Part shown: positions 19,505 through 59,114 of the stretch, piece after piece | Numbering within the stretch: the stretch's first letter is position 1 | Layout: each line of letters starts with the position of its first letter | Assembly (NCBI GenBank): GCA_030704615.1 | Contig: CM060733.1 | Location: 70,990,001 to 71,054,000 of the forward strand | Reading direction: 5' to 3' | DNA length: 64,000 bases | DNA from: Takakia lepidozioides | Taxonomy: Eukaryota; Plantae; Bryophyta | Notes under the pieces: generated by a model | Databases searched by the model: none | The model's input: the letters and a program-made list of their open reading frames with translations, nothing else | Told to the model about the DNA's origin: nothing | Program-made: the position numbers and the translations under genes

Positions 19505-19550
<46 letters not shown>

Positions 19551-32290: not shown

Positions 32291-32670
32291 GCTGGCGTGT
32301 GCAGCTCCCTATGACGTTCATAGGAAGAGTTGCGGTTGCCCAGCGAGCCAAGATGCCAACACTGGCAGCATTCACAGCTGCAGTGACTTGGCCTGGAGAA
32401 TTGTTGGATGACAACACTCATTCAGAGGATGTGTCACCTCCGGGAGAGCAGGATGACATGTATGGTATGGCGGAGTTGCCTGCCATGGTTGCTCACACTC
32501 CATTGTGGGGCTCGAGTAAGGATTTGCAGTGGGTTGCTGATTGGCGTGTGCAACAAGCCTGGGTAGAGGCTTTTGTACCGTCAGGAGAGGAGGATAGCGT
32601 AGGGATTGCACCAAGACCACCTCAGTTGTCACCATTGGACACCACACCGAACGTGTGGCAATGTCCGGAT

Positions 32671-33630: not shown

Positions 33631-34049
33631 GCTGAGCAACGTAGAGTGCGGAGTGCACTTCCCTTGACGGTCTCTCTGCCTACGGAGACGGTACAGGCAG
33701 TGAATAGGGGCGAGCCGGTGAGGACCACGGGGTGTAGACATCCATGACACACGTGGGAGGTGCTCGAGGTTCAGAGGGAGCTGGCAGCCAAGGCGACTGT
33801 GATGGATGAGGTTGGGGAATCTTCTCGGGTTGAGGAGGTCCTCAAGGATGAGATGATGGGGCAGGATGAGGCCTTGTCATTGACTGAGCAGGCAGGGAGT
33901 ACTGCTCAAGAGGTTGCGGCATAGCAACCACGGGACGCGTCTCCTACCTCTAAGTCTGTTGGACTTAAGGTTGCAGTTACGGAGGACAATTGGGAGCCTG
34001 ACATTGGACCCATTGTCACTGGAGGAGAGAGACAACGTATACGACGGTT

Positions 34050-36727
34050 CCTGAGGGCTTACAAGAATTGCTTTGCCTTCAGTTTGAAGGATTTGGGAGC
34101 ACTGAAGGGTTAGGAGATTCGTATTGAGTTGGCCACGGACACGCCAATCTTTCGGAGACCCTATAGATACAGTGGCATGGAGAGGTTTTTGATTCAGATG
34201 AGGACTCAAGACTCTGGGAGGCTGGTTTGGTGGAGCTCTCTGTTGGAGAGTATGCTTTAGCCACGGTGATGTCAGCCAAGAAGGATGTCTATGGCAATTG
34301 GACGGAGAGATGTATGTGCGGTGATTACCGGCCTGTAAATCGTCAGACCAAGTCCGGTAGGTATGCCATGCCCACACCGGAGGAGATCTTTGATGCCATT
34401 GGGCATGCCAAGGTCTTTAGCACTTTGGACTTGCAGTCCGGATATCACCAGTTGCCGATCAAGGAGGCGGACAAGCAAAAGACGGCATTTTGGGGGATCA
34501 ATGAGCATGGGAAGGATTGCCTATATCAGTGGCGGTTCTTGCCATTCGGGTTTAAGAATGCTCCTGCAGAGTTCCAGAGAGTCATGGACAGGATTCTAGC
34601 AGGGGTGGACTTTGCTCGGTGCTACATAGATGACATCATCATCTTTAGTACTACGGTGGAGGAGCACGAGAGACACCTTCAAGTGGTGTTTGAGCGCTTG
34701 AGAGCGCACGGATTGAAATCACATCCAGGGAAGTGCAAGTTCTTCCACAACCAGATTGAGTATCTGGGCCACATAATATATCCTGGAGGATTGGGGGTGC
34801 AACAGACTAAGGTAGAGGCCATCGCACAGACTCCACGTCCCACGGATGTGAGCCGAGTTCGAGCTTTCATGGGGTTGGCAAACTACTATAGACGATTTGT
34901 CAAGGGATTTAGTGCTATTGCAAAGGCTCTAACCAAGCTGACCAATGTAAACCAGGAGTAGCAGTGGGAAGATGAGCAAGAACGAGCTTTTCAGGCGCTC
35001 AAGGCGAGGTTGACCTCGGCGCCCATCTTAAGACAACCTATCAGAGGGCGTCCCTTTCAGCTGCATACAGATTGGAGCATGTTGGGGCTTGGAGCGGTGC
35101 TCACACAGGTGGATGATGAGGGAAGAGAGTTTGTAGTGGCTTATGCTAGCCGCTTGAACAACACTGCAGAGTCTAAGTATAGCTCATATGAGGGGGAGTG
35201 CTTAGCTGCAGCGTGGGCCGTGGCACACTTCAGGTGCTATCTATACGACAATCTCTTCACCATTGTCACGGATCACCAGCCACTCAAGTGGTTGATGGAG
35301 TCAGACAAGCTTACGGGGAAGCTTGCACGGTGGGCACTTATATTCCAAGAGTATGATTTTCAGGTTGTGCATCGACCGGGTTTGGTCAATAGGGATGCAG
35401 ATGGATTGAGTCGCAATCCATTCACGAGCCAATAGGATGACACTGGAGCTCGGTGGCATGGTGAGACGGACGAGGAGATGGTGCCAGGATGACATGCATC
35501 TGCCTTTTGTGTATCTTGGCATCGGGAGGTCAGGTTGGACCTACAACAGGGATGACTGTAGACGGAGTGTCTAAGGACCCTGAGGCTAGTGATGAGCCAG
35601 GTGGTGCCAGAGATATACATGAGGATTCGGTTGTGTTGGACTACCTCCGCACTGGAGACACGACAGCTAGTGTGACTGCCAAGGAGAGGGATCGAATCCT
35701 GCAACGAGCCAAGAGGTTCAAGTGGGAGGGGATACACCTGCTTCGAGTGTGGGAGGATGGTTGGGTGAGGATCGTGCCTCACCCAACACAGCGTGCACGG
35801 TTAGTGCGGCATGCCCATGAGGAGTTGGGGCATTTTGGAGTGCGACGCACTCATAGTTTACTGCAGGGGCAGTATTGGTGGCGTGGTATGCACACAGAGA
35901 TGCAACAGTTCGTGGCTAGGTGCATGGTGTGTGACAGGGCGCGTGTTTCATTCAACGCCCCTACACCACAGTTGCATCCCTTACCCATCATGGGATTGGG
36001 CTATAGGTGGAGTCTTGACTTTGCAGGGCCTTTGCCACTGACGATGCGTCACCACAGATATGTGTTGGTGATGGTGGAGCACTTCTCCAAGTGGATTGAG
36101 TTGGTTCCATCGCCTGACAAGGCTAGTGAGGGGGTTGCATATGCATTCCTGGATCGTGTGCTTAGCCGATTCGGTGCTCCAGCTGAGGTACTCACGGACC
36201 AAAGGAGAGAGTTCTTGGGGGAGTTTCAGGCTTTGTGTGATAAAGCCTTGATAGACCACTGTACCACTTCTCGGGGTCATCCTGAGGCCGATGGCTTGGC
36301 AGAGAGAGTGGTTCAGACAGTGAAGAGGGGTTTGCGCAAGTATGGCTTGCAAAAGTGACACTTAGGAGATTGGGATCTTCAGGTACCTTGGTTAGCCATG
36401 GGCTACAGGTTTAGCAAGCAAGCATCACTTGCCTCCTTCTCACCATATTTCCTTCTTTTTGGCCGAGAGCCGGATTTGCCTGCATCTATTCGCAGGGAGA
36501 CTGCAGTAGTCCTCAACCTTGATGATCCGGATGTGTGGACACAAGCATGTGCCCAGTGGGCAGAGTTGTTCAAGAGAGTCATGCTTATGGCTTTTGAGAA
36601 TCTTGCTATTGCCCAACACCGAAACACATTGAGGTATGCCACTATACGTGGAGGGGGATATCGGCCAGGTATTCGGCGTTTCCACCCTGGGGACTATGTG
36701 TATCTGCAGCAGACAGCGCCTACGACC
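34050..36727 (+). pseudogene. RT, RNase H and integrase of the DNMT-Gypsy element
   Basis: ORF fragments 34227-34961, 35010-35435, 35489-36358 and 36398-36727 with canonical Gypsy motifs. Confidence 0.93.
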
Positions 36728-39700
36728 TTCACCCAGTGCCACTTCTGTAATATCGTGAACCACTCGTCGGGATCGAGGGTCCTTGTGAAGGACCACCTTC
36801 CAGTTCCCTCGTGAACTTTTTTCATCCGAGAAAAAAACTTGCTCCACCTGACTAGGGAATGTCCAGGGCTGCTCCATCCCAGGCAACATGCGACTGAAGT
36901 CAACCAAGAGAAATCCATAATCATCTCGTTTCATGGTGGCATTCCGGCCCACCATGTGTGACCTCACCCATGTACACAAGAACAGAATTGGGTGAAGAAT
37001 TCCGTAATCCAGTTGAATTATTTCTCTTACAACACCCACATATTCCAATTGGGATAACACTCGTCTGGACATACCTGCTCTGTTTTCGCTTTCCTGATGG
37101 AATACTTGAGCAACTCCAGAATCAAATGTCACCCTGTCTCTGGCGCCAGTCCCATCACTTATTGCTCGAAAGTGATTGCCGTAAGCATACATGGACTTGA
37201 AGCCCAATGACTGCTGTTGGTGGTATACATAAATGGCATATGTCCAAATCATAGGACTCACCTGAACTCACCTTGCGTTGGACAGCACCTTCAATCCATT
37301 CATGGAATGGAGCCAGTAAGCGCATATCTGTTGGGTATGGAATTTCTCCATTGTGGTGGTCTTGGTCTTGTCCACAAAGGTATGCTGTTCTGAACTTAGT
37401 GCGGGATGCTTCTATGAGTGCCATCTCCTCTTCATAGGCCCTGTCCAAATGAGAATTGCAAATTAGGATTACAGCTTATACCATTGGCAGAAATGAAACA
37501 CACAGGATATGCTAAGCAACATACTTACTCAAGGAATGGTTTCATGCAATCTGTGTTGTGCAAAATATACTCGTGTGCACTGTCTCGTTCTTGAATGGTG
37601 AGGACTCGTACAGTTCCCAATCCTTCAACCACCTCCCCACTAACTGAGTCTTCTTCATTGGAGTCCCACACCCTTCGGCTTGTAGCATGAAATTCAGCCA
37701 TATACTCAGTTAGAAACCCTAGGGCCTCATCCAAAGCATACCCTTCCGCCATGCTCCCTTCAGGTCGGCTCATATTCCTTACATAGCCTTTTAATGTCTT
37801 CATATACCGTTCCATAGGATACATCCAACGGCTAGACACGGGACCACACACCTCCAATTCGTCCACAAGGTGTACAAGCAAGTGAGTCATGATATCAAAA
37901 AATGACGGAGGGAATTCTTTCTCCAGCAGACACATAGTGATTGCAACATCTTCTTTTAAGGCCGGTACCTCAGCTGGATTAATGATCTTTGCACACACTT
38001 TTTGGAAGACTCGAGAAAGCCTCATAATTGCCATCCGTGGACCCTTTCCCAATACCCCTCGAATGCAAAGAGATAAAATCTGCTGCATCATTACATGGTA
38101 GTCATGGGTTTTCATTGTAGACAGTTTATTGTCAACCACATGTTTCTGGAATGTGGCAGCATAACCTGTGGGGGCCTTTACTGCAGCCAATGTTTCCAAA
38201 AACAGCACCTTCTCATCTTCAGTAAGAACATATGGGGCCAAAGGCTTGACCAACTTGTTTGGGTGAGAGGGATGGGGTCTCAACCACAAGTGTTTACGAA
38301 TGACATTGAGTTCAATATCCTTCCTAGATGTGGCTGTGTCCTTCTCCCCAAGAATGGTTCTCAGCACATTCTCACACAATTTTTTTTCACAATGCATCAC
38401 ATCCAGTGTGTATCAGATGAGTAAGTCTTTCCAGTATGGCAATTGGTTCAAAACAGTGACCCGTTTCATGCCATGTTCCTTTGAAGGGTCCAGTTTTCCC
38501 CCCTCAGCCCCTCCCATTGCGAGATACAACTCTCTGGTTGTAGCCCGGTCAAATTGCTCACTTGCAATGACCACCATAGGAGCTGCTCTATGTTCTACAT
38601 GTCCATTAAAGTGGGACGAGTTATTCCTATAGGGATGAATAGCAGGCAAGTATCTCCTATGACCAAGATACAAAACTTTTTTGCATGCCTTGGAGTACCT
38701 GGAATCAACATTAGGGCCGCAAGCTGGGCAGGCCTTGTATCCCCCGTGTGCGCATCCTGCTAGCAACCCATAAGCTGGAAAGTCGTGGATTGACCACATC
38801 AAGATGGCCCTCATGCGAAATGACTGTTGCCCCACTAGGCTACTTCCATCCAATGCCTCCACACCAACTTCCCACAACAATTTCAGCTCATCCACAAGGG
38901 GCTGCAAATAAACATCTGCATTGTCATTTCCCACAGATTGTGGTCCAGGAATCAATAAAGCCAACATCGTGAAAAATGGCTTAGTACACAGCCATGGTGG
39001 AAGATTATAGTTTACCAACATGACAGGCCAAGTTGACCATTTGTTTGATTTATCACTGTAAGGATTGACACCATCCCAAGCGAGACCCAATCGCAGATTT
39101 CTGGGGTCCGCTGCAAACTCAGGCCATTTTTGGTCAATGTGGGCCCAAGCCTTGCTGTCTGCTGGGTGCCTAACCAAGCCATCCAAACTTCGATTCTTAA
39201 AGTTCCATGACAATAACTCTGAGATGGATTTGGCTTTATACATTCGAAGCAGCCTTGGAATGATAGGGAAATGTCGAAGGACCTTACGAGGTACTGGTGT
39301 CTTCGTACCCACCACATAACGACATGCCTGACATTTTGGACAAACCTCCAAATTTTGAAGCTCCCTTCTGAACAACACACAACCTTTCGGACATGCATGT
39401 ATACTCTCGTAATGAAGCCCGAGTTCCATTATGAGTTGTTTTGCCTCATAGTGGGACTTTGGCAGGCAATCGTCTGCTGGCAATAGTTGTCTTCCTAACA
39501 ATGTAAGGAGTTCATCGACAAAGGTGTTTGACACACCATGGGTTTGACAAGCATTTAACAGCAGTAAGGTAGCAGACAATCGAGATGAAGAACTCCCTAC
39601 ATACAAAGCCCTGGATGCCTCCTGCTCAAAATGTAAGGCACTCGCTGCACCACGATCACCCTCGCTCTTCAGTCCACCATCAGTCTGCTCTGGCACTCCA

Positions 39701-40270
39701 TCTGTGTCCCATTGGCCCTGTGCTCCATCTCCCGGTTCCTCATGTGCATCACCAGTTTGCACCCCATTATCTGTAGTTGCGAATGTCTCCCGGAGCATTC
39801 TAAGCATGTCAAGATTACGATCCAAGGTATCAGGACCACCTGCAGGGCTGGTTTCCGTTCTAAACCCCTCATGTTCGTCTCCAGAGTTTTCCTGCTTATA
39901 AGCATATCAGTCCACATGTCAATCCACAATAAGATGGGGAGTTTAGGGTTGGAAATGGTGGATGTGGAACGTGCCATAATACAGGCACGTGGCAATAGGA
40001 AAACGGGCATGTACAATACTCTACACCTTACAACAATCCCGCTACCAGGAATTTGAACTGTTTCTTATAATTTCAAAGTATGCATCAGGGTTAAGGGAAG
40101 AGAATCCACAGATATGCACCGGGAGTTCTCGCAAGTTAGGATCTCGCAAGTTCAAAGCAGATGACGCTTAGCCCGGCCAATGGTTTGCCAGTTCCCACCA
40201 TGACAGGCATTGCATGGACATAGAATTTTCCGAAGACCCAGTCTTCTTGCTCGCGCTTCCTCTAGTTTCC
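36728..40270 (-). pseudogene. CACTA transposase 3 (transposase-associated domain, TNP2, DUF4218, DUF4216)
   Basis: RKILCPCNAC near 40200; IHACPKGC; LRLGLAWDGVNPY; MHCEKK; RWMYPMERYMK; EYVGVVREI; PSQVEQVFF. Confidence 0.93.
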
Positions 40271-42417: not shown

Positions 42418-45400
42418 GTGCAGAGTTCAGTAAAAAAAATGAAGGGAATTGCAGGGAAGGATGCGAACGAGCATAAGTCTCTTACTCCAGCAAAGTGTGC
42501 ACCAACTATTGCGCCAACTGCTGTGATGAGTGGCGCGGTTGTTTCCCCTTACGAAAAACCAGCCCCGCCCACTCCACAGACTGACGTTCCAGCTCCCTTG
42601 TATCCACCAGTATCGGCTCCTCCCTCGTATCCGCTTATGTACCCACAGTATCCTGCCATGTCAGGGTATAATCTGCATGGGCACATGCCGTATCCTCACT
42701 ATCAACCTCCAAACAATGATTCTCAGTGCCAGAATTACAATTATTTTGCTCCACCTGCAGGCGCTCCAATGCATGATCCTAGTCAAGGTGGGTATTCCAT
42801 TTACCACCATTATGGAATGCATCCCCATAGTATGTATCCTCCTCGGCCTATGTACAACCAACCTACTTCCTCCCTCTATCCTACCAGCCCTGCAAGACCA
42901 CACCAGGGGCAGGTCCAGTATGGTGGCCACCAACCTTCAGGATCCAACTACAGTGGAGTACAACTGCTGGCACCTTCGAGCTTCACTGCATCGCGGCCAC
43001 CTCTTTATCCAACATCTCCAGGTACACCTAATACCCTGAAAAGGAAAGGCATTCTGAAACAGACAGAGGATGCATTTGCTCCGCATCATCCTGTGGGGTG
43101 GGAGACAGCAGTCCAGCCCCAACAGAGTGAAGGTGGTAACATGCATGGTATTGCTGAAACCTTGCAGGATTCCAGCCTTAGTCCTGGGGGACATCAGGTG
43201 TGACTCCTATAGAACGCAAAAATGCTTTAAGGAGGGAAAGAAGGGCACTTGCAAAAAATCTGAGAGACCAGGCTGCTCAGAATGTGGCTGTAGGGAGGAG
43301 GAAATTTTTCATTTATTGTGATGAACTTGGAAACCCTGAAGGTCCTGCTCGGAACCAATGGATGACAGCTCTGCGAGGGCAGTGTCAACGTTTGTTGGAC
43401 TGGTCATTGTATGCTCAGGATCAACCATTACACTTAATTGAAAAGATCATGGAGATCCTGGCTTCAGATTGGGAATACGGACCTCCTGGTCTTAACATAA
43501 AGGCTATTACAAAAACAATTTGCGGGCAGCTCAAGTACCAACGAAATAAGTTGTTCAAAAATTACTATAGTGTGGGGCTGCCCAAACCCCATCATGTGCC
43601 AGATAAGACATGGGCACAACTAGTTGTTACTTGGGGTTCCACTGATTTCAAGAAATTTCAGGCAAATGGTGTCAAGGCGCGGGGATGTGTGAAGAATACA
43701 TCTCGATCAGGTCGTAGTGGAATCAGCGGTGTTGTAGCACGACTAGTATACTTCTCTTACAACATAGGAAGTTCCCACATTGTTTTGCATTGACAAACTT
43801 TATGTGTTGGGTTTTTTTGGCTGGAGCTCAGAGTCTATTCCTATCACCATTGAATTAGTACACATTGCTACTACTTGGGGGCCTTCTCAGAGTTGGGCGC
43901 CAGCAAGAAACTAAGCACTCTTATTGAGGGGGAGTCATTGACGCTATCCTAGATAATTCTTTACTGTTGGCAGTGTGCTATGCTAGTCATTAACACTTGC
44001 AAGTTTGTTGCAATCACAGGAGAAGGAGACTGGACGTACACCAAGTTTGCAGGAGATCGCTGGTAACGCCAGGAGTGACAAAGGCTACGGCTCGGGGTGT
44101 ACAGGCAGTGCAACCACAACGGTATATAAACTCAGTACCAATTTTGGTGTGAATTACATATTCGTGATTTCCATGCCATTGCTAGTTGCCGTTTGGTTCT
44201 GTTTTCTTACTAGTTCATCAGTCAGTGTAGTGAATTGTTACTTTGGAGGTGTTCTATGTGATGGGGCAGGGAATTGGTTCACTAGCAGCTCGCCTCGATG
44301 CTATGGAAAACAAACAAGTGCAGATGGAAGCCAGCTCCAAGGCAGCTTTGGAAGCAGTCCAAGGCCAACTGGAGGCAGCAGCTGCATTCAACATTGCGCT
44401 CGCAGCTAAACTTGGCATGAATGTGCCAGATTCGGAACCTACAGGTCCACCATGCACCACCTTTGCGCCACACACAACAAATGAGACTATTTCTCATGTT
44501 ATGGGCTCACCACTCAACCTGTTCAAGGCAGTTTCTTCACCGCCACCAAAGCCAAACACAATAGGCTCATTGTTTGGGCTTTCAGAAATGGAGGGGGATG
44601 ATGACATGGAGGGTTGGTCTGAAGGTGAACTCAATCCATCCCCCCATATTGTTGAGGCAACTGCAAAGTGTTCATCCGTTTTGTTGTCCCCTACACCAGT
44701 AGCACTTCCGACATATGTACTACCCTCTCAATATGCCTGTGTGGTCTCCATGAATTTGCAGAGTGCCCCACAGAAAGGTGTGTCTTTTGTACATGATAAT
44801 CATGTACAAGTTGTTGGTAATTGCCCTTCGGCAACTGAGAGGCAGAAACACATCCTTATACTTGACTTGAATGGATTGTTATGTGAGAGCAGACTACGAA
44901 CAAGGGAACACCTAGAGCCCACTGTCACCTCCAGACCTGGGTGTCAGGAGTTTCTGGACCGATGCCTTCAGATTTTTGATGTAGGTGTATGGTCTTCCAT
45001 GTCATTGAGTAATGTCCTTCCAGTTGTGATTGCATTGTTTCCTGGGAAGCAACCAAAGATGGTGCTTCACCAAGACTATTGTGACCAACCTGTGGGAATG
45101 GTGGACCCTCTCAATCCTTCTAAAACTATCATGTACAAGAACTTATGTAAGTTTTGGAAGGACTACAGCCATTACAATCCAACCAATACTTTGCTAGTGG
45201 ACGATTCCCCACTCACTTGCTTACCCAACCCTACAAATAATTGCATCTTCCCGTATCCATGGAAGTTGAGGGATCAGCCAAACTGCAAGAGGCTTATGAA
45301 AGAATTACTGCCTTGGTTAGAGGGTGTATCCAAGGCTGCACACATCCCTGAGTATGTGTCAGGGCACCCATACAGATATGGGCAGCCCAACTACTTGTTC

Positions 45401-46370
45401 AATACTGCAGCCATGGGTAGTGGATCACAACAATCTGCAAAGGCATCCGAACCAGGCTTCCTGCTGCCAGAGTTCCAACGACTTTGCCTCCCGATGCAAC
45501 AACAAAGCATAATCAAAGAAAGGTGAGAGCAAAAGATTCAATGCTTGGGCGCGCGGGTGGATTTGTATTGTTAATGCTACTTCACAATGTGTGTCATTCG
45601 TGCTATTCTCATTTTTTGATCATGTGTCATTCAATATGCAGATGGCGAAACCAGTGAAGCGTTCAATGGGCAGGGAAACTACAATATGTGCTATCAATCA
45701 GACTACAACCACAGTGGATGTAACTGAACCATTGGGTGACCAACAAAATCCGCACAGTGTAAGTACTTCCTTTGTCCTCTTTTGTTTCCTTGTCTGATGC
45801 TGGATCAATACACCCCCTATGTATCGCTGTGTAGCTGCAGGATTGACAACCTACAAAGGTAGTTTTGTGACATTGTCCTACCACATCCATGTTGACCATG
45901 CAGAACCTGCTATCAACTAGGTATGGCACCGTTCCACCTTTGATCATGTCAGCATGGAGTATAGAGACAGGCAAATGCAATTCAGAATTGGAAGTACTGC
46001 AATAGGTAGGGTTGGGGTGTTTGCTGGAAGAACGAGGATGCATTTTGCAGGAGTGCCAAGCTGTCAGTCTCTGTTCTCCAGGGTTCATTTCTGATATAGG
46101 AATCTGGTTTTTGTTCAGTTTCAGATCGGCGACAAGGTGTTCTTGTTTGATCCTTGTGCACCAAAAAGAAGGGCAGGTGTGGGATATATTGCTGGATTTC
46201 CGAAAGCAAATGTGCCAGACAACTATTACCGTATCCATGTGAAATCGGTCATGATTTCAGAGGTTGTGTTGCCGTACCCGGACTACTCTGTTACCCCTAA
46301 TCATACCACATTGGGTGACACGTAGGGAAGTGCCACCTTATGGTCTGAAAAGTTTATTAAACACGCGTGA
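42418..46370 (+). pseudogene. Multi-exon CACTA ORF2-like gene: Pro-rich region, Transposase_24-like domain, HAD/NIF phosphatase, TNP1-like C-terminus
   Basis: KPHHVPDKTWAQLVVTW..ARGCVKNTSRSGRSG (43200-43745); LILDLNGLL..RPG..DVGVWSS..KNL..TLLVDDSP (44850-45370); YYRIHV..LPYPD..TLGD..TLW (46130-46370). Confidence 0.65.
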
Positions 46371-46612
46371 TATTGAAGATGCTACAAGTTTAGTTTAGTT
46401 TTCTTTATGGATTGAAGGTTGCTGAGACAGGTGAACAAAACTGCTCTTCTGACATGAACAGTATTTTTTGAATTGATGCTCTTGCTATTCTCATGTATGA
46501 TCACAAGATCCCCTTGTTCAAAGGCAACTTCATTTTCCCACATCAAGCCAACGCATCAAAGCGAGTGACTATGACTTGAAGGGGAGCTTACCGAAGTGAG
46601 GTGCACGACACT

Positions 46613-46624
46613 TGGTATCAGAGC
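46613..46624 (+). promoter_or_regulatory. Primer binding site (tRNA-Met)
   Basis: TGGTATCAGAGC after ...GCACGACA-CT. Confidence 0.9.
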
Positions 46625-46666
46625 TTAGAGTTCAGTACGTGATCGTCCTTGGTATTGGCCTCATCA

Positions 46667-49600
46667 TGGGGTTGGGCAAGCCAAAGCCAAAGCGGAACGG
46701 CCCAAAAGATGATGATCCTGGTGAGGCCGATGGGGGCGATGTGTCACCGAGGCGGCCGTTTGAGGAAGCGATGCATGTTTCCAAAAACGAGGCCGCTCAA
46801 GAGCGGGAGGAATCCGAGGAGTCGGAGCCCGAGGAATCCCTGAGAGCTCCGACCGACCAACAGATGCCTCCCATGCCGGCAGCCTTTTGGGAAGGGTTGT
46901 TGGCGCAGTTTGGCGGGACGCTGAAAGACGTGTTGAAGGCGGCTAATGCCTCTTCCACTAAGGCAAAGTTTAAGGTGAAGCCTAAGGAACCCGACACCTT
47001 CGAAGGCGTCCGAAATCGGAAGGCACTCAACACCTGGCTCCTGGAGCTAGAACAGTACTTCCGAGCGGCCAAGTTGAGTGACGAGGATCGGGTGGAAGTG
47101 GCTCCCACCTATTTGAGGGGCTATGCTCAACAATGGTGGCAGAAACGCCTTCACGACCGAGGTCCAAGCCCGGAAACCTTGAACTGGAGTGGATTCAAGG
47201 AATTGATGAAGAGACAATTTGTGCCCCTCAACGCGTCCTAGTTTGCCCGGGACAAGATGAGGAATTTGAAGCAAATAGATGACATTCGGGGATATGTCCA
47301 GGCTTTCAATTTGCATTTGCTCGAAGTCGCGGACATGGCAGAACCAGAAATGGTCTTCAACTTTGTGGCGGGACTGACCCCATGGGCCAGACGGAAGTTA
47401 GAGGAGAAGCCACCTAAGACTTTGAACGAGGCAATTGAGAGGGCTGAATGTTTCTCGGATGTCCCTAGGGGTGAAAGACAAGGCCGTACGGAGCTGAACC
47501 ACAAGAAGACCCGGCGGGAAGGTGACTCCTTCCGACCGGAAAAGAAGTGGGATAGGCCACACGACGACAATGGCACGTGGAAATCGAAGGGAGGGCCTTC
47601 ACAAGTCAAGGCGGCACCCGGTGCTTCGAAAGGAAAAGCAGGTGGAGCGGCCTATGGCGGACAGAATGCAACCTTTGATGGAGTGTGTTTCAATTGCGGG
47701 GAGCCCGGGCACATGGCCAAGAAGTGCACGAAGCCCCGACAATTGAACATGACTCGGGCGACCACAGAGCTGTCGGAAGATACCATCAGTCGCTTGGTGG
47801 AAGCGGTGGTCGCCAGGACTTGCAAGGTAGGCAAATTTTCTTGTGAGTTGTATCAGGAAACTGGCGCCTTACGAAAAGGGAGTCAGTTATTGTTCGTGGA
47901 TGGGATAATATCCGGAACTAATGTGTCGTTGTTGGTGGACATAGGAGCGTCGCACTCCTTCATGACACCGGCAACGGCACAAAAGCTGGGACTCCCGACA
48001 AGTGACGTGGGGGCCTCTATTGAGGTGCGTTCTGCCAAAGGAGAACCGCAATTGGCGACAAGGTTGGCGTTTGATGTTCCTCTTCAACTGGGGAGTGGGA
48101 GGGACGTGAGAACTTCACCATCTGCGAGATTGATGGAGTGGATCTCATTTTGGGGATGACCTTTTTGAGCAAATCCGGAGCGGTCATAGATGGCCGCAAG
48201 AGAGTGGTCACGCTGCCATGTGGGAATGGTGGCGAGGTTTTAAGAGTGTCGGAAACGCCCAAATCTGTGGGAGGGCGAATAAACCTTCTGTCAGCAAAGG
48301 AGTGGGCCGTGGAGGAGGCACACGAGCCCCAGTTTTTGCTCTACATTAGAGAAGTGAAGGGAGAAGGCGATGGGGAGCCGAGCCCAGATTGGATCAAGGG
48401 GATTTTGGAGAAATACTAGGATGTGATGCCGGAGGATTTACCAAGCGGTTTGCCACCGCGAAGAGGAGTTGACCACAAGATTGAGGTGATACCGGGATCG
48501 GAACCGCCTGCCAAGGCGCCCTACCGGTTGAGCCACAGAGAGTTGGTCGAGCTGAAGACTCAGCTCAAAGATCTAATGTCAAAGGGGTACATCCGGCTGA
48601 GTAAGTCACCTTACGGAGCCCCGGTGCTATTTGCAGATAAAAAGGATGGGACGCTGCGGATGTGTGTCGATTACAGGGCTCTGAATAAGGTGACTATCAA
48701 AAACCGATACCCTTTGCCAAGGATCGACGACCTCTTCGATCGGTTGGCAGGAGCGAAGTATTTCAGCCAGATCGACTTGCGCTCCGGCTATCATCAAATT
48801 CGGGTGGCGGAAGGAGATGAGGAGAAGACCGCGTGCAGGACAAGGTATGGTTCATATGAGTTCTTGGTGATGCCTTTTGGGCTCACCAATGCACTAGCGA
48901 CATTTAGCACGCTGATGAACAGCCTTTTCCAGGAGTGGTTGGATGACTTTGTGATCGTGTACATCGACGACATCTTGGTGTACTCGAAAACAAAGGAGGA
49001 GCACTTGGAGCACCTGAAAAGGGTGTTCCAAAAATTGCGAGAAGGGAAGCTGTATGCCAAAGCTTCAAAGTGCGAATTCGGGGTCACAAAAGTGGAGTTC
49101 CTGGGGCATGTGATTACACAGGATGGGATCAGAATGGATGACAGGAAGGTGAGGGCAATCTTGGACTGGGAGCCTCCGACTTCGGTCCCGGGAGTGCGAT
49201 CCTTCCTAGGACTCGCCTCCTATTACCGAAAGTATGTGAGAAATTTTGCCAAGATCGCGGGGCCGCTGTCAGACCTTCTGTGTAAATCCAAAGTCTGGGC
49301 ATGGAACACCTTTTGTGGCCAAGCTTTTGCTGAATTGAAGCAGCGGATGGCGGAAGCTCCAGTCTTGAAAATCCCGGAGTTCGATCTTCCGTTCGAGATA
49401 CATACAGATGCGTCGGACTTCGCGATTGGGGGTGTACTGATGCAAGATGGACGTCCAGTGGCTTACGAAAGTAAGAAACTGAATGAAGTGGAGCGACGGT
49501 GGCCGACGCACGAGAAAGAGATGAAGGCGGTGGTGCACTGTCTTGAGCTTTGGCGCCACTATGTTGGTTCCAACCCAGTGAAGGTGTTCACGGACAATGT

Positions 49601-51223
49601 TACGGTGAAGTATTTTGCCACGCAGCCCAAGTTGTCCCCAAACAACTTAGGTGGCAAGATACTTTGGCGGTGTTCGACGTGGATATCCAGTACAAACCGG
49701 GACGAGACAACGTGGTGGCCGATGCTTTAAGTAGAAAGCAGCAGCTCTTGTTGGTGTACAAGGGCGAGACGGCGCTCCAAAGGAAGATCCGGAAGGCTTG
49801 CCGGAAGGATGAGCTGGCGAAGTCCGTGATGCAGGACTTGAGGATGGGGTTAAATCGCAGTTCCACTTGCAAAATGGACTGCTTCGGTATAAGCAAAAGC
49901 GTCTCTACGTGCCGAAGGGAGGGATCAGAGATAGCCTCTTGAGAGAATGCCATGATACCCGCTTGCGGGCCACGGCGGAGCCAAGCGCACTGCGGCACTC
50001 TTGAAGAAAGAGTATTTCTGGCCCAAACTGAGGGAGGAGGCAGAGGAGTATGTCAAGACATGCACCACATGCCAACAAAACCGGAGCGAGTACAAAAAGC
50101 AAGCGGGGCTGTTACAACCCTTGCCGATTCCAGAGGGACTTGGGAAAGCGTCTCGATGGATTTCATGACTGCTATGCCGCTGTCAAAAGGATTCGATGCA
50201 ATCATGGTGGTGGTGGATAGGTTCAGTAAAATGGGTCATTTCATCCCCACCAAGGAGACGGCAACGGCGCAAGAAACAGGGCGACTTTACTTCGCCCACG
50301 TCTTAAAGCATCATGGAGTCCCGAAGGATATTGTCTCGGACCGCGATCCAAAGTTTACGAGTAAATTTTGGAGGGCACTTTGGAAGAAGATGGGGACGAG
50401 GCTGAAGATGAGCACCGCCTTCCGACCTACGACCGACGGCCAAACAGAAAGAGTGAATTCCGTAGTGAAGCAGATCTTGCGGAATTACGTGTCGGCAGAC
50501 CAAACAGACTGGGTGGAACACTTAGACGCGGCAGAGTTCTGTTATAATAACACAGAACACTCCGCAACGGGAGTTTCCCCTTTCGTATTGGTCTATGGAA
50601 AAGCACCTCTGGTGCCGACAAGTTGGGCCGCCCAGGACGTTGAGGAACCGGCAGTAGCGGCGGTACTGGAAGAACGCGAGCGTTTGTTGAAGCTCGCAAA
50701 GTACAACATTGCCAAAGCTAGGAAACGGTATGAAAGGCAGGCGAATCGGAAGCGGAGGGAAGTGAAGTTTGAGGCAGGCACGGAGGTCTGGTTGAACATC
50801 AAGAATTTCCGACTACCTCCGGAAGTGAGTCCAAAGTTCGTACCTCCGTATGCGGGACCCTTTCGCATCCGGAAGGTTATGAATGAGGATGTGTATGAAT
50901 TGGAGCTGCCGGCAAACAGCAAGGTGCATCCAGTATTCCACGTCTCCCTTTTGAAGCCTTACTTCAAAGATGAAGCGCGTCCGAATCGGCATCAAGTGTT
51001 GCGTCCGCCACCTGTGCTGTTGGATCATGAAAATGAACCTGAGTACGAGGTGGAGGCAGTACTTAAGTCGAGGAGGTTCAAGAACCGAGAAACGGAGTAT
51101 CTCGTCAAATGGAAGGGCTATCATCATGTGGAGGCATCTTGGGTGCGTGCCTCAGAAATGGGAAACGCATCCGAGGCGGTTGCAGTTTTCGAAGGGCGAC
51201 CTCAAAAGCGGAAGAAGCGTTGA
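46667..51223 (+). pseudogene. gag-pol of chromovirus copy 2
   Basis: CFNCGEPGHMAKKC; LVDIGASH; YIDDIL; HTDASD; integrase core; chromodomain about 51040-51190; a few stops and frameshifts. Confidence 0.95.
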
Positions 51224-51257
51224 TGGGGACATCAACCTTGGAGCGTGGGGGAGGAAA

Positions 51258-52805
51258 TGCATGCTTAGCCCGGCTTAGCTAGCTCAGGAATCCGATTGCA
51301 AAAACTTGTATTGTACAAAAATTTGTTATAAAGGAAATGGGTTCCAAATGTTGTGCGTCCTATTTTGTTTGGAATGGTGATGCATGGTGTGGTTGGCTAG
51401 TGTGTAGAATGCATGCTAGCTTACAAAAGTGGGAGAGGTAAATTGGGTTAATCGTGTGTTTGCGCAGTGCCGAAATCGGGTGACTCCCATCCAAGGGGCA
51501 AGGAAACTTGCGCCTTCTTTGGGAGTTCACGTGCTAGTGCGCACCTGGCGCGTGCGCATACTATAACTGCGCTACCGAGGGGTTGCCTTGTAGTGCGGGC
51601 TAACGCGGAAGCTACGTGCTTCCGTTCACGTACTATAATCGTGTAGCCTCGGGACGAAGTCGTAGTGCGGCTTCGACGTGTTCCCGTACCTCAGGCCAGC
51701 ATTCCAAGCGGACCCAATTGTAGTGATTGGGGCGCACGGTTGGTTCAAGGTTATCTTCCTAGTCAAAGGGGGTTGAGGTGAACCCTTGCTCAAAGTGATG
51801 CCAAAAGCGGCATCATGAGCGATCGCAAGCAATGTTGTTGCAGTAAGGCGATTCGATCCTCGGGGAGGATCGTTCCTTGGCCTTGAAGTAGGCCAAGAAG
51901 AGTGCACTGGGAGGAGCTTGAGAGGCTCCACCCCTGGCCGGGACTTGGAGGAAGTCGGCCGAACTAGCTAGTGGAGAGTAGAGTCAAGTGTGGGGTTTGG
52001 TTCTTTGCCATGGGACGCCATGGTACGGAAACAAACTCCTTGATGTGGGACGCCACAACTTGGATGTTCGTTTCTACAAAATGGACAAGTCGATGAGGAC
52101 ATCGACTCCCTGTTGGTAGGGGTGTGTGTCGCGGCCCTTTGCCTTGAGGGCAGGGGGTCGGGACACATGAGGGGCTGCCCCTGTGGTGGGGGCAGCGGCA
52201 GCGATAGGTATGGGGGGCTGAAGCACCCTTGAGTGCCCAAGGCACTCAAGGAGGCGGAGGCGCTCACTAGGTGGAGCCCGCACACCGGGTTGCGGTGGGG
52301 GTGGCTCCACAAGTGGTGGTGGTAGCTTAGCGGGACTTAGTGGGGGTGGCATAGGACTCACCATGGGGCGGAGACCTCGTGGTGGGAGTCGTGGGGAGTC
52401 TTGGGACTCATCACGGTCCATAGGGGCCGTGGTGAGTGGGCCAAGACTCACCGCGACTCATCACCGGGAGTCGAGGGTTTTCGTGGTGGTTCGCCATAAA
52501 ATGGCATGGCTGGTTGTGAAACCCCCGCAGACAGCTACAGAAGTATATATAGGGAGTAGTAACCCCGAGAACGGTGCAAGCCCGTTGGTGACCAAAAACT
52601 AGTGAGTAAGCGAGCGAGCCGGAAAGCGACCAAAGAGTGGGGAGCTGTTTCGGACTGCCAACTACCAAAGGGAATTCCCGCTAGGCCGAAATCGGTGGAG
52701 GGTTCTTTGGGAGATCAAAGGGGGACCGTTATGCCCCGGTGAGCAGCCGAAGCTCCAAGTTGGCCCGGCGGCCAGGTTGGGAGTTAGGCGCGCGCGCGCG
52801 CGACA
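51258..52805 (+). repeat. 3' LTR of chromovirus copy 2
   Basis: TG after the PPT; TATA-like GTATATATAG near 52543; ends (CG)nACA. Confidence 0.85.
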
Positions 52806-53429: not shown

Positions 53430-54220
53430 CAGATCGCATGTCTCTGTAAAGTGAAGCAACCTCTTCAGGTGTCACTTGGATGGTCTGGCCCACCCTGTCA
53501 CCAGCAACATTCGTCTCTTCAATTTCATTGGGGCTAAGAGGCCTGACACACTTGTTATATCATCGTTGCAAATGCTGACATCACACACAACCCTACATGA
53601 CCTCGGGCTTTTTTCCAGCACCACATTCCACCTCGGTTCACTCACACAATCCGAGAAAAATACCTGCTCCACCTGTGATGGGAGCACAAATGGCTGTTCA
53701 AGTGGAGGCAACAAGTGGGAGAAATTCACCAACGTGAAGCCACAGTCATCCTGCGTCACTGACACAGGCTGGGAACCCACACGTCGTGCACGTACCCATG
53801 AACACAAAAGGACCGTGGTGTGTGTAGAGCCATAATCCAATTCAAGAATCTCCTTTATGACTCCAACATAACGTACGTTTTCCACCATCTGTGCACTTGA
53901 AAATACCAGTAGATTCATGCTGGAAAACAGTAGATACCCCTGAGTCATATATCACAAAGGGACAGTTCATACCATCTGAAGTAACCCTGAAGTGGTTTCC
54001 ATAAGTTGACATGCTTTTGTATGATGTTGCGATGAATGATGGGGGTTTGCACATGTCCAAAAATTCCTTGCAGTCTGAATCAGATGCATGGTTGGCATCA
54101 CTCGACACGTGCACACGCACAACCGTTACTAGCCATTCTGCAAAGTGAGGGAGAGCGCGGATCCTGTTCGGATTTGCAGCATTTGCATTGTCCACATGGG
54201 ATTTCTCCAACTCATATGAC
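53430..54220 (-). pseudogene. CACTA transposase DUF4216 fragment
   Basis: YKSMSTYGNHFRV; YVGVIKEILELDYG; PFVLPSQVEQVFF. Confidence 0.88.
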
Positions 54221-54249
54221 CCGCCAAGCACGCACCACCGCATGAGATT

Positions 54250-55882
54250 GTCCAGTGCAACCCCTGCAGCAAATGGAAGAACAACAGCATGCCCACCATT
54301 ACAAAGCATACTCCCCCAAACCACCCGCTCAAAACAGAATGGTGGCTACCTCACACGAACCCAAAAGCGGGAATGGACTTCCCATCTCAACACATACCAT
54401 ACCATACGTCGTGCCCTCACCATTATCCCCAACTTGCCCACCACCAACCAATTCAACAACTGGGTGAGTGACTGCCGTATATCATGCTTAAACTCCATCC
54501 CTACCTGTCAACCACTTCTACCCCCACCTGCTGACCGCACCCTAGGCACACAACTACAAGAAGCACTCAATGACCCCGGCCGACTAGGACTAATCTATAG
54601 GGGACTCCTTCAATTCCCAGCTACTAAGTATAATGGCTTTTACTCCCTGCCAACCCTTCATCCCCAATCCTGCCGCCATTCTCCCACCGCTAGAACTCTA
54701 TACATCTTACGCCAAATGAACATTAGCATACAAACCGATCTCCCTGGCTATCCTAACACCATCTCACCCCTTGAAATCGCCTGGCTTGACAGTCCATCTC
54801 TCCCTGAATTTGAGGAACTTCACCCCCGCCAAAAAACGCCCATACTTGCTTACTTTAAAATCAGACACATCACAACACTTACCCAACTCACCACAGCCTC
54901 TGGCTATAGACTATTCTCACCCCAAGAGTTCACTCTCAAATACTCCAGAGCCACCGTCAAAACATGTCGATACCTGTCCCTGCTTCGAACCCTTTTCTGC
55001 CACATGACTCCCTCGTGTTCTCTTGAGTGCGACCTACCATGCAAACTCTTTCCCCATAACAAACTAGACCTTCTTCCTCAATATAGAACATACCCAGCCC
55101 CATCTATTCTCAGTATGATGGCAGCACATAAAGCTCACCCTGACCCTTCAAGTTCTAACACCCCTCCCATGTCGCCTTGCCACTCTATGTCCCCCTCCCA
55201 AATGATCAGTTCAAACTTGACCATCCCTTCTGGCTCAACCACCCCCCACACCCCTATCCAAACCTCCTCTACCCCGCTTACCTCGACCAGCCCGCCCTCG
55301 CCCTCAACCCCGAGATATATTAACCCAAACAATCCGGAAGCCTTCATTATCGAAGCTATTCTAGGGATCAGAACTCAGACCACCACCGACGAATTTGGCG
55401 CCACATGCCTAGACACTTTCTACTTATGCAAATGGGCTGGGTACCCATCGAGAAATAACAACTGGCAAGCAGAGGACGACCTATTTGGGTCCCATGAGGA
55501 ATGTGACCTGGCCCACAACCTTGACCTCCTCACTGCATTTCATAAGTCCACTAATACCAACTACCTGGCCCATACCCACCAACAACACACTTCCCAAACC
55601 CAATCGATGGACGCCCGGTACGTCCATAACCCCCTAGTTGCCCCCGAGGTACATGTCTACATCACAAAATGCAATCTTGACAAAGACATCCTACACACCT
55701 CCCCTATAATACGCTCCAGCAAGCGTCTGTCCAAGTTATATGCCTCACATGGCGGCTTCATTGGTCTCATTCCTAATGACAGACTCACCTGGCTATGGCA
55801 CAGATTCTCAAATTCAAACCCGCCACCTAGCCAGCTCACGCCCACTAAACAAGACTTCGCTACTGAAGTTTGCTGGCTCGTG
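54250..55882 (+). pseudogene. Non-LTR retrotransposon ORF fragment (Dualen/RandI-like by recollection) with a chromodomain
   Basis: Open frame of over 500 codons, C/A-rich; LGTQLQEALNDPGRLG; FIIEAIL..YLCKWAGY..NNWQAEDDL (55343-55483); DKDI..GLIPNDRLTWLW; cut by an LTR at 55883. Confidence 0.55.
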
Positions 55883-56133
55883 TGTCGTGCGCATACATAT
55901 CGCTACACAACTACATCGCTATCCAAAACCACACAACATATGTGCATACCAAACACTAGTCTATAACTAGTCCACCACTAGTGCACCACTAGGCTGCCAC
56001 TAGACAACCACTAGTCACCACTAGTGCAGCCACTAGTCCACCACTAGGCTACCACTAGCCACCACTAGTGCAGCCACTAGTCCACCACTAGGCTGCCACT
56101 AGCCACCACTAGTGCAACCACTAGTCCACCACA
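55883..56133 (-). repeat. LTR A, copy 2
   Basis: TGTCGTGCGC...CCACCACA, matching 56454-56758; internal CCACTAG repeats. Confidence 0.8.
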
Positions 56134-56451
56134 ATGATAAGGAAAGGAATGATACAAGCACACAAGCTCTCTCAAACTCACATGCTTGCACATGAAAACA
56201 TCACTCATATATTAAGTCGAGCCAAGTGCACCCCATGCCATGGGGAATCCACACTACGGCGCCATAGCTAGATGCGGTGAGGCTCAACTCGAGAAAGATG
56301 AGCCTACCGCGATCTGCCGTGAAGATAACAACGTCAGGTGCCCAAATATGTATTGGCCCCTGGATTGACACTTGGGTCAATCCCAAATGTCAATATATAA
56401 AAGCTAGCTATTTCCTAACTAACTTTACACTAGTGGTAAAATAACTTGACA
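56134..56451 (-). repeat. Partial repeat X
   Basis: Near-identical reverse complement of 23703-24020. Confidence 0.85.
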
Positions 56452-56453
56452 GC

Positions 56454-56758
56454 TGTCGTGCGCATACATATTGCTACACAACTACATCGCTGTCCAAAAC
56501 CACACAACATATGTGCACACCAAACACTAGTCTATCACTAGTGCACCACTAGTGCACCACTAGGCTGCCACTAGACAACCATTAGTCACCACTAGTGCAA
56601 CCAATAGTCACCACTAGGCTGCCACTAGCCACCACTAGTGCAGCCACTAGTCCACCACTAGGCTGCCACTAGCCATCACTAGTGCAGCCACTAGTCCAAC
56701 CACTAGGCTGCCACTAGCCACCACTAGTTCATCAATAGGCTGCCACTAGTCCACCACA
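56454..56758 (-). repeat. LTR A, copy 1 (3' LTR of the PHD-bearing Gypsy end)
   Basis: TG...CA ends; purine tract AGGGGGG (within 56761-56770) just upstream on minus. Confidence 0.8.
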
Positions 56759-57027
56759 ATTGCCCCCCTAGCTGGCGCTTAGGTCCCTCTAAGTCCAGGT
56801 AGCCTCAAGATGTGATAGTGGCCATAGCCTCACAAAGTCCTCCACCACTATCCCTACTACACTCAAACTCGATAGATCAAGAGGCCGGGTACAAGAGTTG
56901 CCCCATCGTTAGTCGTCGTCTTGCAACCTGTGAACTTGAGCCTGCGATCTTGGGTATTGACTCCTATGAGCTTGGCCTCCTATGTCTTGTGAGCTGCCAC
57001 TAGTCATATCCACTGCCACTATCCCAA

Positions 57028-57312
57028 GCAGTGTGGACATAACCAATCTCCATCATGAACCCTCTAGAGGTGGTGTCAAGCATCCCATGTGCCAACCTCT
57101 TGAGCATCGATCACATACCAGCATAGTGGCCCACATAGCATGCAACGCAATCCTGCAGGTACCACTGCAAGGTTGGGATCTATCCTCCCATCCACATATG
57201 GAAGGTGACATGGCGCACAATTATGCACATGGTCCTTCCATACCATGCCATCTCGACCCTCCAGAATTAACACTCCTGAAGGCAACACTTCCCTGACCCT
57301 TAGAATCACACG
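57028..57312 (-). pseudogene. Gypsy integrase C-terminus with PHD finger
   Basis: RVILRVREVLPSGVLILEG..NCAPCHLP, then CMLC..(fs)MLVCDRCSRGWHMGCLTPPL..(fs)DWLCPHC, a C4HC3 pattern. Confidence 0.85.
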
Positions 57313-57397
57313 TCATTTATGTAGGCATGGTGCCTCCTGAAATTCCTCATAACATCATGACTAAGCTTGCTGTTTGTGTTCTTTTGAGTGAGGCAGA

Positions 57398-59114
57398 TGA
57401 ATTGGCCATTGCCAACTTGAATGCACCTGCAAGGCAGAGGCAAAATGGTAGAAGGCGGAGGCAAGCTCCACATGGGAGGTACCAAGCCAGTTGTGCTATG
57501 GTGTAGAGTTGGTTTCTGCTATTGCATGTACTTTTCCAGGGTTTAGACTTGATACAGCATGGTACGTTCCATGGGTGGGAGTGACTGAGCTGTTGGGGTG
57601 GGCAGAATTCTGACAAACACACTTTCATTTGTGACAGTGAACCCTAAACAGTCATGAAGCTATGGCATGAATACTTTTCTGACCCTAATCAATGGTGGCC
57701 CAATTGTGGGAAAAAGGTGAATGCATGTTGGATTATAGAGAGTAGCAGATGCAATTGAGCATAGGAACTAGTGTGAGAAGTTGAGTTGGGTGTTTCCTTG
57801 AACAAATGTAGGCTGTTATTGTCAGTTGCTACCAGCAAGACAAAGATGTATGCATGATTTGTGAGAGGCATGGATAGCTGAAGGAGCAGGGATAGAGTGT
57901 GGGTCCAGATTCATCCAAGAGGGCCACATTTCAAGCACAACATTGCCTATGATTCCTTGTGGAAGGATTGGTACAAGAAACCTGCATGGGTAGATGGTCA
58001 ACTGGAAGCCGCAGCAGCAACGGCACAATTGGTAAAATCAGGCGATGAGGGCACCTTCTTCAACACATTTCAGCCTGTTTTTCCCCCTTATCACAATCGG
58101 CCCTAAATTTCCATGTTGAATTATGCAAGTTAGCTGGTTGACTGAATCTTTGATAGATTGGAGTGACTTTGACATGATACTGCCAATGTGACAACAGGAA
58201 AGTATCCAGAAACAGGTACAAGAGATGAGGAGAAGGTGTGGAATGAATACTTTTCTGATTTGGACAAGTTTAGGGAGTGTTCAACACCATGGCTGAACAA
58301 GATGTGGTGTCGTGGAGCGCGATGCTTGCAGGATGTGCACAGCAGTGAAGTGGGATGGAGCCTTTGAATTGCTGAATTGGCCATTGCCAACTTGAATGCA
58401 CCTGCAAGGCAGAGGCGAAATGGTAGAAGGCGGAGGCAAGCTCCACATGGGAGATACCAAGCCAGTTGTGCTATGGTGTAGAGTTGGTTTCTGCTATTGC
58501 ATGTACTTTTCTACGGTTTATACTTGATACAACATGGTACCTTACATGGGTGGGAGTGACTGAGCTGTTGGGGTGGGCAGAATTTTGACAAACACACTTT
58601 CATTTGTGACAGTGAACCCTAAACAGTCATGAAGCTGTGGCATGAATACTTTTCTGACCCTAATCAATGGTGACCCAATTGTGGCAAAAAGGTGAATGTC
58701 TGTTGGATTACAGAGAGTAGCAGATGCAATTGAGCATAGGAACTAGTGTGAGAAGTTGAGTTGGGTGTTTCCTAGAACAAATGTAGGCTGTTATTGTCAG
58801 CTGCTACCAGCAAGGCAAGGATGTATGCATGATTTGTGAAGAGGCATGGATAGCTGAAGGAGCAGGGATAGAGTGTGGGTCCAGATTCATCGGTGAGGGC
58901 CACATTTCAAGCACAACATTGCCTATGATTCCTTGTGGGAGAATAGCTACAAGAAACCTGCATGGGTAGATGGTCAACTGGAAGCCGCAGCAGTAGCGAC
59001 ACAATTGGTAAAATCAGGCAATGAGGGCACCTTCTTCAACACATTTCACCCTGTTTTTCCCTCTTATTAGAATCGGCCCTAAATTTCCATGTTGAATTCT
59101 GCAAGTTAGCTGGT
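57398..59114 (+). repeat. Tandem duplication (period 975 bp) containing the OSB/PDF exon
   Basis: 57398-58138 matches 58373-59114; exons begin at 57909 and 58885; inverted relative to 25010-26040. Confidence 0.85.

Follow-up and report, generated by a model that had tools for sequence, protein, structure and literature searches.

The locus and its element

The window analyzed here, a 64,000-nucleotide stretch of the Takakia lepidozioides genome, contains a Ty3/gypsy-DNMT3 copy that is dead, with many stop codons. On the plus strand, from 29842 to 36729, lie a gag-like region, a protease (PR) motif, a C5 methyltransferase (DNMT), a reverse transcriptase (RT), an RNase H (RH) and an integrase (IN) that ends abruptly at 36729, while the remainder of the body, including a PHD finger and a polypurine tract (PPT), lies on the minus strand. 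The order in the element is A1–gag–PR–DNMT–(stop)–RT–RH–IN–PHD–PPT–B1–A2–B2, where A and B are repeats treated further below. The body consists of the following:

29842–31400, plus strand: gag-like region, interrupted by stop codons and sharing 45–60% identity with the gag position in most related loci
31950–32280, plus strand: aspartic protease with an LDSGA motif
32677–33640, plus strand: DNMT3-type C5 cytosine methyltransferase (PF00145, E 1e-11)
33922–33930, plus strand: conserved TAG separating DNMT and RT in frame, its context CAR-YYA, a predicted readthrough stop
34206–35432, plus strand: reverse transcriptase and RNase H (PF00078, PF17917, PF17919)
35570–36729, plus strand: integrase with H2C2, rve core and the start of the C-terminal part (PF17921, PF00665), cut at the left inversion breakpoint
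57145–57314, minus strand: remainder of the C-terminal domain of the integrase (SH3-like beta)
57028–57144, minus strand: C4HC3 PHD finger with frameshifts near 57130 and 57061 (PF00628 match)
56763–56769, minus strand: G-rich polypurine tract, conserved in relatives

The gag-like region has no Pfam match between 29842 and 31400 and is only 22–24% identical to its counterparts in the related loci L015 and L021, in which the Asp_protease matches also fall below the cut-off. The methyltransferase, whose closest solved relatives are DNMT3A/B, displays motifs I, IV (PC), VI (ENV), VIII, IX and X, and is interrupted by four premature stops (32905, 33385, 33421 and 33466).

A Ty3/gypsy affiliation is indicated by the PR–RT–RH–IN order with a DDE integrase and by the TG…CA ends, the PPT and the 4–5 bp target duplication; moreover, the best solved relative of the homologous protein P0059 is the Ty3 Gag-Pol. 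The canonical LTR form is not seen, i.e., two full identical LTRs at the ends are absent, and the ends instead take the form A…B or A…B-A-B. A tyrosine-recombinase (DIRS/PAT/Ngaro) element was rejected, given the rve integrase and the absence of any recombinase family in the ORFs scanned. A chromovirus was likewise rejected: the integrase C-terminus has no chromodomain, the PHD being followed by a stop. The RTs of the DNMT/PHD family group apart from those of the window's own chromodomain elements (99/96) in a tree for which 32 rows were selected among the loci and proteins, and in which the long branches of P0087–P0089 are unsure.

The window also holds two copies of such ordinary chromodomain-bearing Ty3/gypsy elements, at about 1380–7800 (minus strand) and about 46550–52800 (plus strand), which are 84% identical; the second of these matches gag, PR, RT, RH, IN, SH3 and Chromo. 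The observed/expected CpG ratio is 0.51 in the DNMT element (29700–36729) versus 0.79–0.88 in the two chromovirus copies, a depletion that either age or longer methylation could explain. Just upstream of the second chromovirus copy, an ORF at 44234–45526 (plus strand) codes for an NLI-interacting-factor-like phosphatase domain (PF03031, E 9e-17), which may represent a transposon-captured gene. Complex tandem arrays with units of about 73 and 96 nt and poly(A) runs, partly inverted, occupy 13287–13900, 16318–17994 and 18000–19900.

A PHD finger at the integrase tail

On the minus strand, the integrase C-terminal segment is recognizable from 57312 and is followed by all eight zinc ligands of a PHD finger at 57144→57028, in the pattern C-x2-C … C-x2-C-x4-H-x2-C … C-x2-C, with a stop codon at 57021→57019. 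The initial annotation had recognized a C4HC3 finger here from the sequence and proposed a PF00628 search. Both proved sound: the eight ligands are in place, although spread over three frames by two frameshifts that had escaped notice, and the middle piece alone scores above the PF00628 cut-off (24.9 versus 24 bits, E 2e-5). The Cys4-His-Cys3 ligands and the PHD fold place the finger in this family, and the PHDs of its relatives also score above the cut-off. The predicted model of one such relative, P0004, overlays the ATXR5 PHD at 0.9 Å over 48 columns with a pLDDT of about 80 in that part, the model being poor outside the tail (pLDDT 54.5 overall). The surmise that few codons were missing between the two integrase halves also stands, as 14 nt are absent from the window and matches to homologs resume five residues later.

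The DNMT and the PHD as constant companions

The comparison across the family draws on protein homologs, run contigs and metagenome loci. Among the 86 homologs of the integrase end, whose named members come from Marchantia, Calypogeia, Sphagnum and Riccia, PF00628 is listed in 52. One natural protein, P0059, unites DNMT, RT, RH, IN and PHD, and its DNMT region retrieved three other long proteins, all of which have a PHD as well. Among 80 metagenome loci, picked by an integrase-tail/PHD query such that PHD presence is by selection, and several of them repeated assemblies of one site, the DNMT is present in 26/26 of the related loci with a protease, and the PHD in 33 of the 34 loci with a DNMT, the sole exception ending before the PHD position. 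The claim that one element carries both a reader and a writer is thus upheld by the intact relatives. A separate PHD-only element was rejected, no locus with a protease being without a DNMT.

The methyltransferase of the family is of the DNMT3 type, lies inside the polyprotein and has intact motifs, with PC kept in 22–23 and ENV in 21–24 of 24. Between L015 and L021, pN/pS is 0.23 for the DNMT and 0.10 for the PHD, pointing to purifying selection; the medians over representative pairs are 0.45 (DNMT, 14 pairs), 0.44 (PHD, 33 pairs) and 0.30 (RT, 43 pairs), all values being uncorrected, with synonymous sites near saturation. The position of the DNMT differs by lineage, i.e., before the RT in the window subfamily and between RNase H and integrase in P0087–P0089, whereas the PHD follows the integrase in every lineage compared.

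In P0087, P0088, P0089 and P0079, the last of which starts at the DNMT, the PHD after the integrase is itself followed by a C-terminal DP(F/W)xG stretch, reminiscent of the cofactor motif of adenine methyltransferases. These distant relatives are possible EpiLTR-like elements (see below) with a PHD. Two Marchantia gene models, P0006 and P0016, are annotated as "PHD-type" hypothetical genes, lie on decayed family copies and have DNMT-region matches; such models may inflate the PHD gene counts of liverworts.

A conserved stop between the DNMT and the RT

In L015, the coding capacity is divided into two ORFs, Gag-PR-DNMT (1,369 aa) and RT-RH-IN-PHD (1,047 aa), which are split by a single in-frame stop only. 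A TA[GA]CARYY stop, a motif that was relaxed after seeing the data (last base freed, TAG/TAA only), occurs in 35 of 43 sequences, the window (at 33922) among them, where chance would give 0.02 per search span; the strict CARYYA is found in 13/43, ten of these in frame, and the commonest context is TAG-CAA-CCC (18/35). In plant viruses, CARYYA is known to signal readthrough (PMC4132726), and the conserved stop of the window subfamily is predicted to be of this kind. P0059, in contrast, has no such stop, and its DNMT and RT share one ORF. A leaky stop would yield much Gag-PR-DNMT and little RT-RH-IN-PHD, such that the methyltransferase would be a bulk component of the particle, with the PHD reader traveling with the integrase.

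Predicted roles of the finger and of the methyltransferase

The solved structures that best match the family PHD are PHF12, Lid/KDM5 PHD1, CHD4, DPF3, ATXR5, BHC80 and BAZ2. The equivalents of KDM5A L309, P331, W335 and D312 are kept: across the loci, the H3A1 pocket and the R2-binding Asp after Cys3 recur with L in 72/74, D in 71/74, W in all 69 aligned and P in 52/74, the window copy having His at the Pro position. Such conservation is not shared by the acidic residues. The cluster before Cys1 that is seen in readers of unmodified H3K4 is absent, with L-R/K-C standing there in most loci, and the alignment has no equivalents of KDM5A E305, D306, D292 and D315 in the family PHD. A reader of H3K4me3 was rejected: PHDs of this class have an aromatic cage with an invariant Trp (PMC3241642), the alignment shows no aromatic residue at the cage positions, and no ING, BPTF or TAF3 appears among the best 60 of 65 solved matches. 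With the A1/R2 pocket kept and both the cage and the K4 acids absent, the finger would read the free H3 N-terminus as a weak anchor rather than as a K4me3 reader, and in active copies would tether the integration complex to histone H3 tails; with the acidic residues gone, however, H3 may be bound weakly or not at all. Because the DNMT and the PHD are some 1,100 residues apart, with a conserved stop of the readthrough type in between, the finger likely targets integration rather than switching on the methyltransferase.

The initial annotation had instead likened the pair to the ADD-plus-catalytic arrangement of DNMT3. This analogy is not supported, as those 1,100 or so residues are occupied by RT, RNase H and integrase, with the in-frame stop in addition, and in L015 the reader does not adjoin the catalytic domain in one mature chain. 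Cooperation in the manner of DNMT3 on H3K4-unmethylated chromatin, with the finger bringing or activating the methyltransferase, e.g., on the new copy or its flanks, appears unlikely, even though both domains are under purifying selection in one element and the finger is closest to the readers of unmodified H3, a class that includes DNMT3A/3L. A readthrough product would hold both domains in one chain, as P0059 and P0087–P0089 do, and in the latter three the DNMT directly precedes the integrase-PHD; however, it is the DNMT that changes position while the PHD stays on the integrase, and in the window subfamily the distance and the stop intervene. Gypsy Pol polyproteins are processed by the protease, which further weakens the case for a shared chain. 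The ADD is distinguished by an extra zinc knuckle before its PHD, whereas the family has a single canonical PHD with no such knuckle, and the acids that read K4 are absent. For Gypsy-DNMT3, methylation of the element's own cDNA has been proposed (PMC5890265), and a DNMT made with Gag upstream of the predicted leaky stop would perform this as a separate job.

That the finger has become a structural or protein-interaction appendage of the integrase, no longer reading histones, is quite unlikely. It would account for the missing acidic residue before Cys1 and the missing equivalents of the four KDM5A acids, but not for the near-invariance of the residues of the A1 pocket and of the Asp that binds R2, none of which would be required if the finger bound zinc only.

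Split LTRs, with proposed self-priming and opening of circles

The ends of the element are made up of two repeats:

23699–23702, plus strand: target-site duplication, left, 4 bp; 3/4 bases match the right copy, with a transition at CpG
55879–55882, minus strand: target-site duplication, right, 4 bp
23703–24019, plus strand: repeat A1, at the element's 5′ end, beginning with TGTC and finishing with CA; 300/317 bases identical to A2
23855–23867, plus strand: predicted self-primer in A1, likely transcript 5′ end; perfect 13-nt complement of the A1 3′ boundary bases
24019–24031, plus strand: predicted self-priming primer-binding site directly after A1
56454–56758, minus strand: repeat B1, TG…CA, after the PPT; the LTR of the initial annotation
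56448–56457, minus strand: B1/A2 junction palindrome, perfect 10 bp (CA, 2 nt, TG); predicted integrase cleavage site
56135–56451, minus strand: repeat A2
55883–56133, minus strand: repeat B2, 3′ end of the element; 241/251 aligned bases identical to B1

A PPT followed by an LTR had been described behind the finger, with the caveat that no copy of that LTR was found upstream of gag. The G-rich PPT and a TG…CA repeat are indeed present, but the repeat is half of a split LTR, which is why a 5′ LTR seemed to be missing; the caveat holds for repeat B, and A1 stands upstream of gag in its place, no 5′ LTR being lost.

The A1…B1-A2-B2 layout, matching the DIRS-like split repeats of Gypsy-DNMT3, is common to the window, L023, L052 and L078/L079, while L003, L005, L007 and L013 exhibit a second form, A…B alone. 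Both forms start with TGTC and end at the terminal CA of B, and the 4-bp duplication at the A-start and B-end is perfect in 6/7 of the related loci checked. None of the loci tested has a repeat B upstream of the body, the B pair is absent in 29 of the 58 loci with enough downstream sequence, and no end repeats were found in L015. The B/A junction matches at least seven of the eight palindrome bases in 22/23 loci, against a background of 0.7% in random windows; these 23 come from 29 loci with a B pair, after dropping L024, L058, L061 and L066, whose 69–72% repeats have no relation to B, as well as L069 and L072, whose alignments do not reach the B end. Rearranged ends are seen in L014 (3361–3878), L017 (1412–1929), L033 and L048, where either an inverted half of A comes after A2, or the PHD is directly joined to A's second half plus B.

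In six of nine elements, the bases after A1 are a perfect complement, 11–17 nt long, of a site in the middle of A1, with sequences that differ between subfamilies; at 2,280 control positions, the self-complement reaches at most 9 nt. Self-priming has been delimited by a complement of at least 10 bp within 0–5 bp of the 5′ repeat (PMC6317226), and the self-complement after A1 falls within these bounds. A TGG tRNA-type site was not found directly after A1 in the window.

Taken together, the A…B and A…B-A-B ends, the B/A palindrome and the self-priming site suggest the internal opening of LTR circles. Reverse transcription would be self-primed from A, with the plus strand starting at the PPT, and the true LTR would be B+A; the integrase would then open one- or two-LTR circular cDNA at the B/A palindrome, the two bases in its center being lost, which would account for both forms seen, A…B and A…B-A-B. 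Recombination between B1 and B2 could just as well produce A…B.

The inversion and the unity of the copy

One rearrangement accounts for the placement of the two parts:

36730–57314, no strand assigned: inverted segment of 20.6 kb, marked by reciprocal loose ends and one shared contig

This segment is inverted: reciprocal junctions are seen in contigs. Loose ends behind 36729 continue into the 57314 segment in 43, 29, 8 and 3 contigs of runs X1, X2, X3 and X5, respectively (X1–X3 being one sample and the four runs two samples), and mirror-image loose ends are seen at 57314. A 531-nt X5 contig captures the reciprocal junction, its first 111 letters lying on 57427→57317 and letters 121–271 on 36729→36879. 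The losses are small: at one junction the gypsy is short of 14 nt, and at the other a CACTA-like element is short of 9 nt. None of the contigs listed bridges the window's own junction; thus, a misassembly is formally still conceivable. Of the 86 homologs that the integrase end of the DNMT element has, 58 match the 57312 segment too, with up to 85% identity, and in many the match to the DNMT element stops at 36730 and restarts at 57312 five residues on. When the inversion is undone, the flanking CACTA halves become collinear and the two ends of the element acquire matching 4-bp flanks (3/4 bases, one CpG transition); A1 and A2 are 95%, and B1 and B2 96%, identical.

The PHD tail, which had been assigned with some reserve to the DNMT element, almost certainly belongs to it, and even to the same copy, in light of the reciprocal junctions, the five-residue gap in homologs and the flanks. 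That the two parts are pieces of different copies or that the break is an assembly artefact is very improbable, for while the pieces lie 20.6 kb apart on opposite strands in a family that is high-copy by contig depth, and the target duplication has one mismatch, the junctions are reciprocal with small losses at both, the CACTA halves are collinear and the A and B repeats match, and the pairing of DNMT and PHD at the family level would hold even if it were true.

The surroundings of the copy are themselves composed of mobile elements. Two halves of one CACTA-like transposase (Transposase_21 and DUF4218 in one, DUF4216 in the other) lie at 21388–23551 (plus strand) and 54189→53574 (minus strand), and the Ty3/gypsy-DNMT3 copy is nested between them. 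A second CACTA-like element, at 36730–39906 (minus strand), was cut by the inversion and continues from 57317 onward, within a tandem duplication of about 975 bp (57398–58138 and 58373–59114). The B2 end is inserted into an ORF at 54149–55882 (plus strand) that codes for a chromodomain (PF00385, E 3e-6) together with a linker rich in Ser/Pro/Thr and may derive from another retroelement, and for which no longer homolog was found among 2,213 candidates (query 54890–55882). Because this flanking ORF has no such homolog, it is the outer CACTA halves and the 4-bp duplication that speak for continuity across the insertion.

A synthesis and its implications

The findings are best joined in a reading to which we assign a probability of roughly 0.7 from sequence comparison: the integrase-borne PHD would tether the complex to H3, the DNMT would separately methylate the cDNA, the 3′ end of this copy was displaced by an inversion, and the ends would be self-primed and opened from circles. 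More tentatively, with the odds somewhat against it, the family may be a widespread green-plant lineage that combines self-priming, LTR-internal opening of circles, a lack of paired LTRs, a leaky-stop DNMT3 made in Gag amounts that methylates the cDNA within the particle, and PHD-guided landing.

Transposon-borne DNMT3s are known from algae, while the window family is represented in liverwort and moss proteins; being also high-copy in this host, it offers a land-plant case that is tractable. From where the stop lies, the methyltransferase is predicted to be a bulk protein of the particle, and this renders the published idea of self-methylation of cDNA directly testable. The circle route through an LTR-internal palindrome, if true, would be a new one for a DDE integrase and would explain the DIRS-like ends noted in Klebsormidium; LTR finders would miss these elements, and annotation based on LTR pairs would undercount them.

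Comparison with known systems

The nearest known system is KnitGypsy-Dnmt3, or "Gypsy-DNMT3", of streptophytes, described from Klebsormidium nitens (de Mendoza et al. 2018, PMC5890265) and named again in a preprint (10.64898/2026.05.21.726589). It shares with the window family a DNMT3-type domain in a gypsy polyprotein, with catalytic motifs kept under purifying selection, and "DIRS-like" repeats with gypsy domains (Fig. 4c legend, PMC5890265). The differences are that its DNMT shares an ORF with the RT (review file of PMC5890265), as is also true of P0059, whereas the window subfamily has a conserved stop between them, and that it belongs to Klebsormidium, whereas the window family has homologs in the land plants Marchantia, Calypogeia, Sphagnum and Riccia. 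The text of PMC5890265 and its supplements, as distinct from the figure, contains no mention of a PHD, and the portions of the article available offer no end mechanism; no protein named from K. nitens appears among the homologs of the integrase end or of the P0059 DNMT region.

Fusions of PHDs with retrotransposons are common (10.1101/2021.11.30.470311). In Chlamydomonas, gypsies such as Gypsy-7a_cRei (PMC9940879) and REM1 (via citing papers) carry, like the window family, a PHD as an accessory domain, which is proposed to limit harmful insertions (PMC9940879); unlike in the window family, no DNMT is reported for them in the portions of these sources available, and Gypsy-7a has LTRs at both ends. 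EpiLTRs, which combine a chromodomain, a DNMT and DAM in LTR retrotransposons (10.64898/2026.05.21.726589), likewise bring together, within a single element, a reader of histones and a cytosine methyltransferase, though with a chromodomain, a DAM adenine methyltransferase and a DNMT of the DNMT4-sister type in place of the PHD and DNMT3 type without DAM. With each part published, and a chromodomain–DNMT pairing in the 2026 preprint, the PHD–DNMT pairing is less surprising, and the interest of the family lies less in it than in the predicted leaky stop and in the ends with their split LTRs. A literature search, with figures, Repbase and most subscription papers lying outside it, yielded no description, for this family, of the PHD–DNMT3 combination, the stop, self-priming, the junction palindrome or its cleavage, and the portions of PMC12344493, PMC11982613 and PMC8557442 available hold nothing on the family.

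Chromoviruses, including the self-priming Tcn1/Tf1 (PMC6317226, PMC6673714), also bear a chromatin reader at the integrase C-terminus, and the primer site of Tcn1/Tf1 self-priming has its like in the window family, which differs in having a PHD for the chromodomain, RTs that group apart (99/96) and split rather than paired LTRs. By this analogy, an anchor on the H3 tail borne by the integrase, the role that chromodomains play in chromoviruses (PMC6673714), is the best reading of the PHD. The NCGN target preference of the Phygy clade (PMC6317226) is not shared by the loci checked, a central CG being seen in 0/6 perfect duplications.

The A1–body–B1–A2–B2 arrangement of the ends parallels that of the split-direct-repeat tyrosine-recombinase elements (A…BAB in the review file of PMC5890265), from which the window family is set apart by its DDE integrase, TG…CA ends, PPT, 4-bp duplications, common A…B form and lack of a tyrosine recombinase. 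For the cleavage proposed here, the foamy-virus integrase, which cleaves the palindrome of 2-LTR circles (PMC1180852), provides a precedent in which a DDE integrase cuts circular DNA at a junction formed by a CA…TG palindrome; the foamy cut at the LTR–LTR junction restores normal ends, whereas the site predicted in the window, being inside the LTR, would permute it. The split-direct-repeat tyrosine-recombinase families include PAT, TOC1 and Ngaro.
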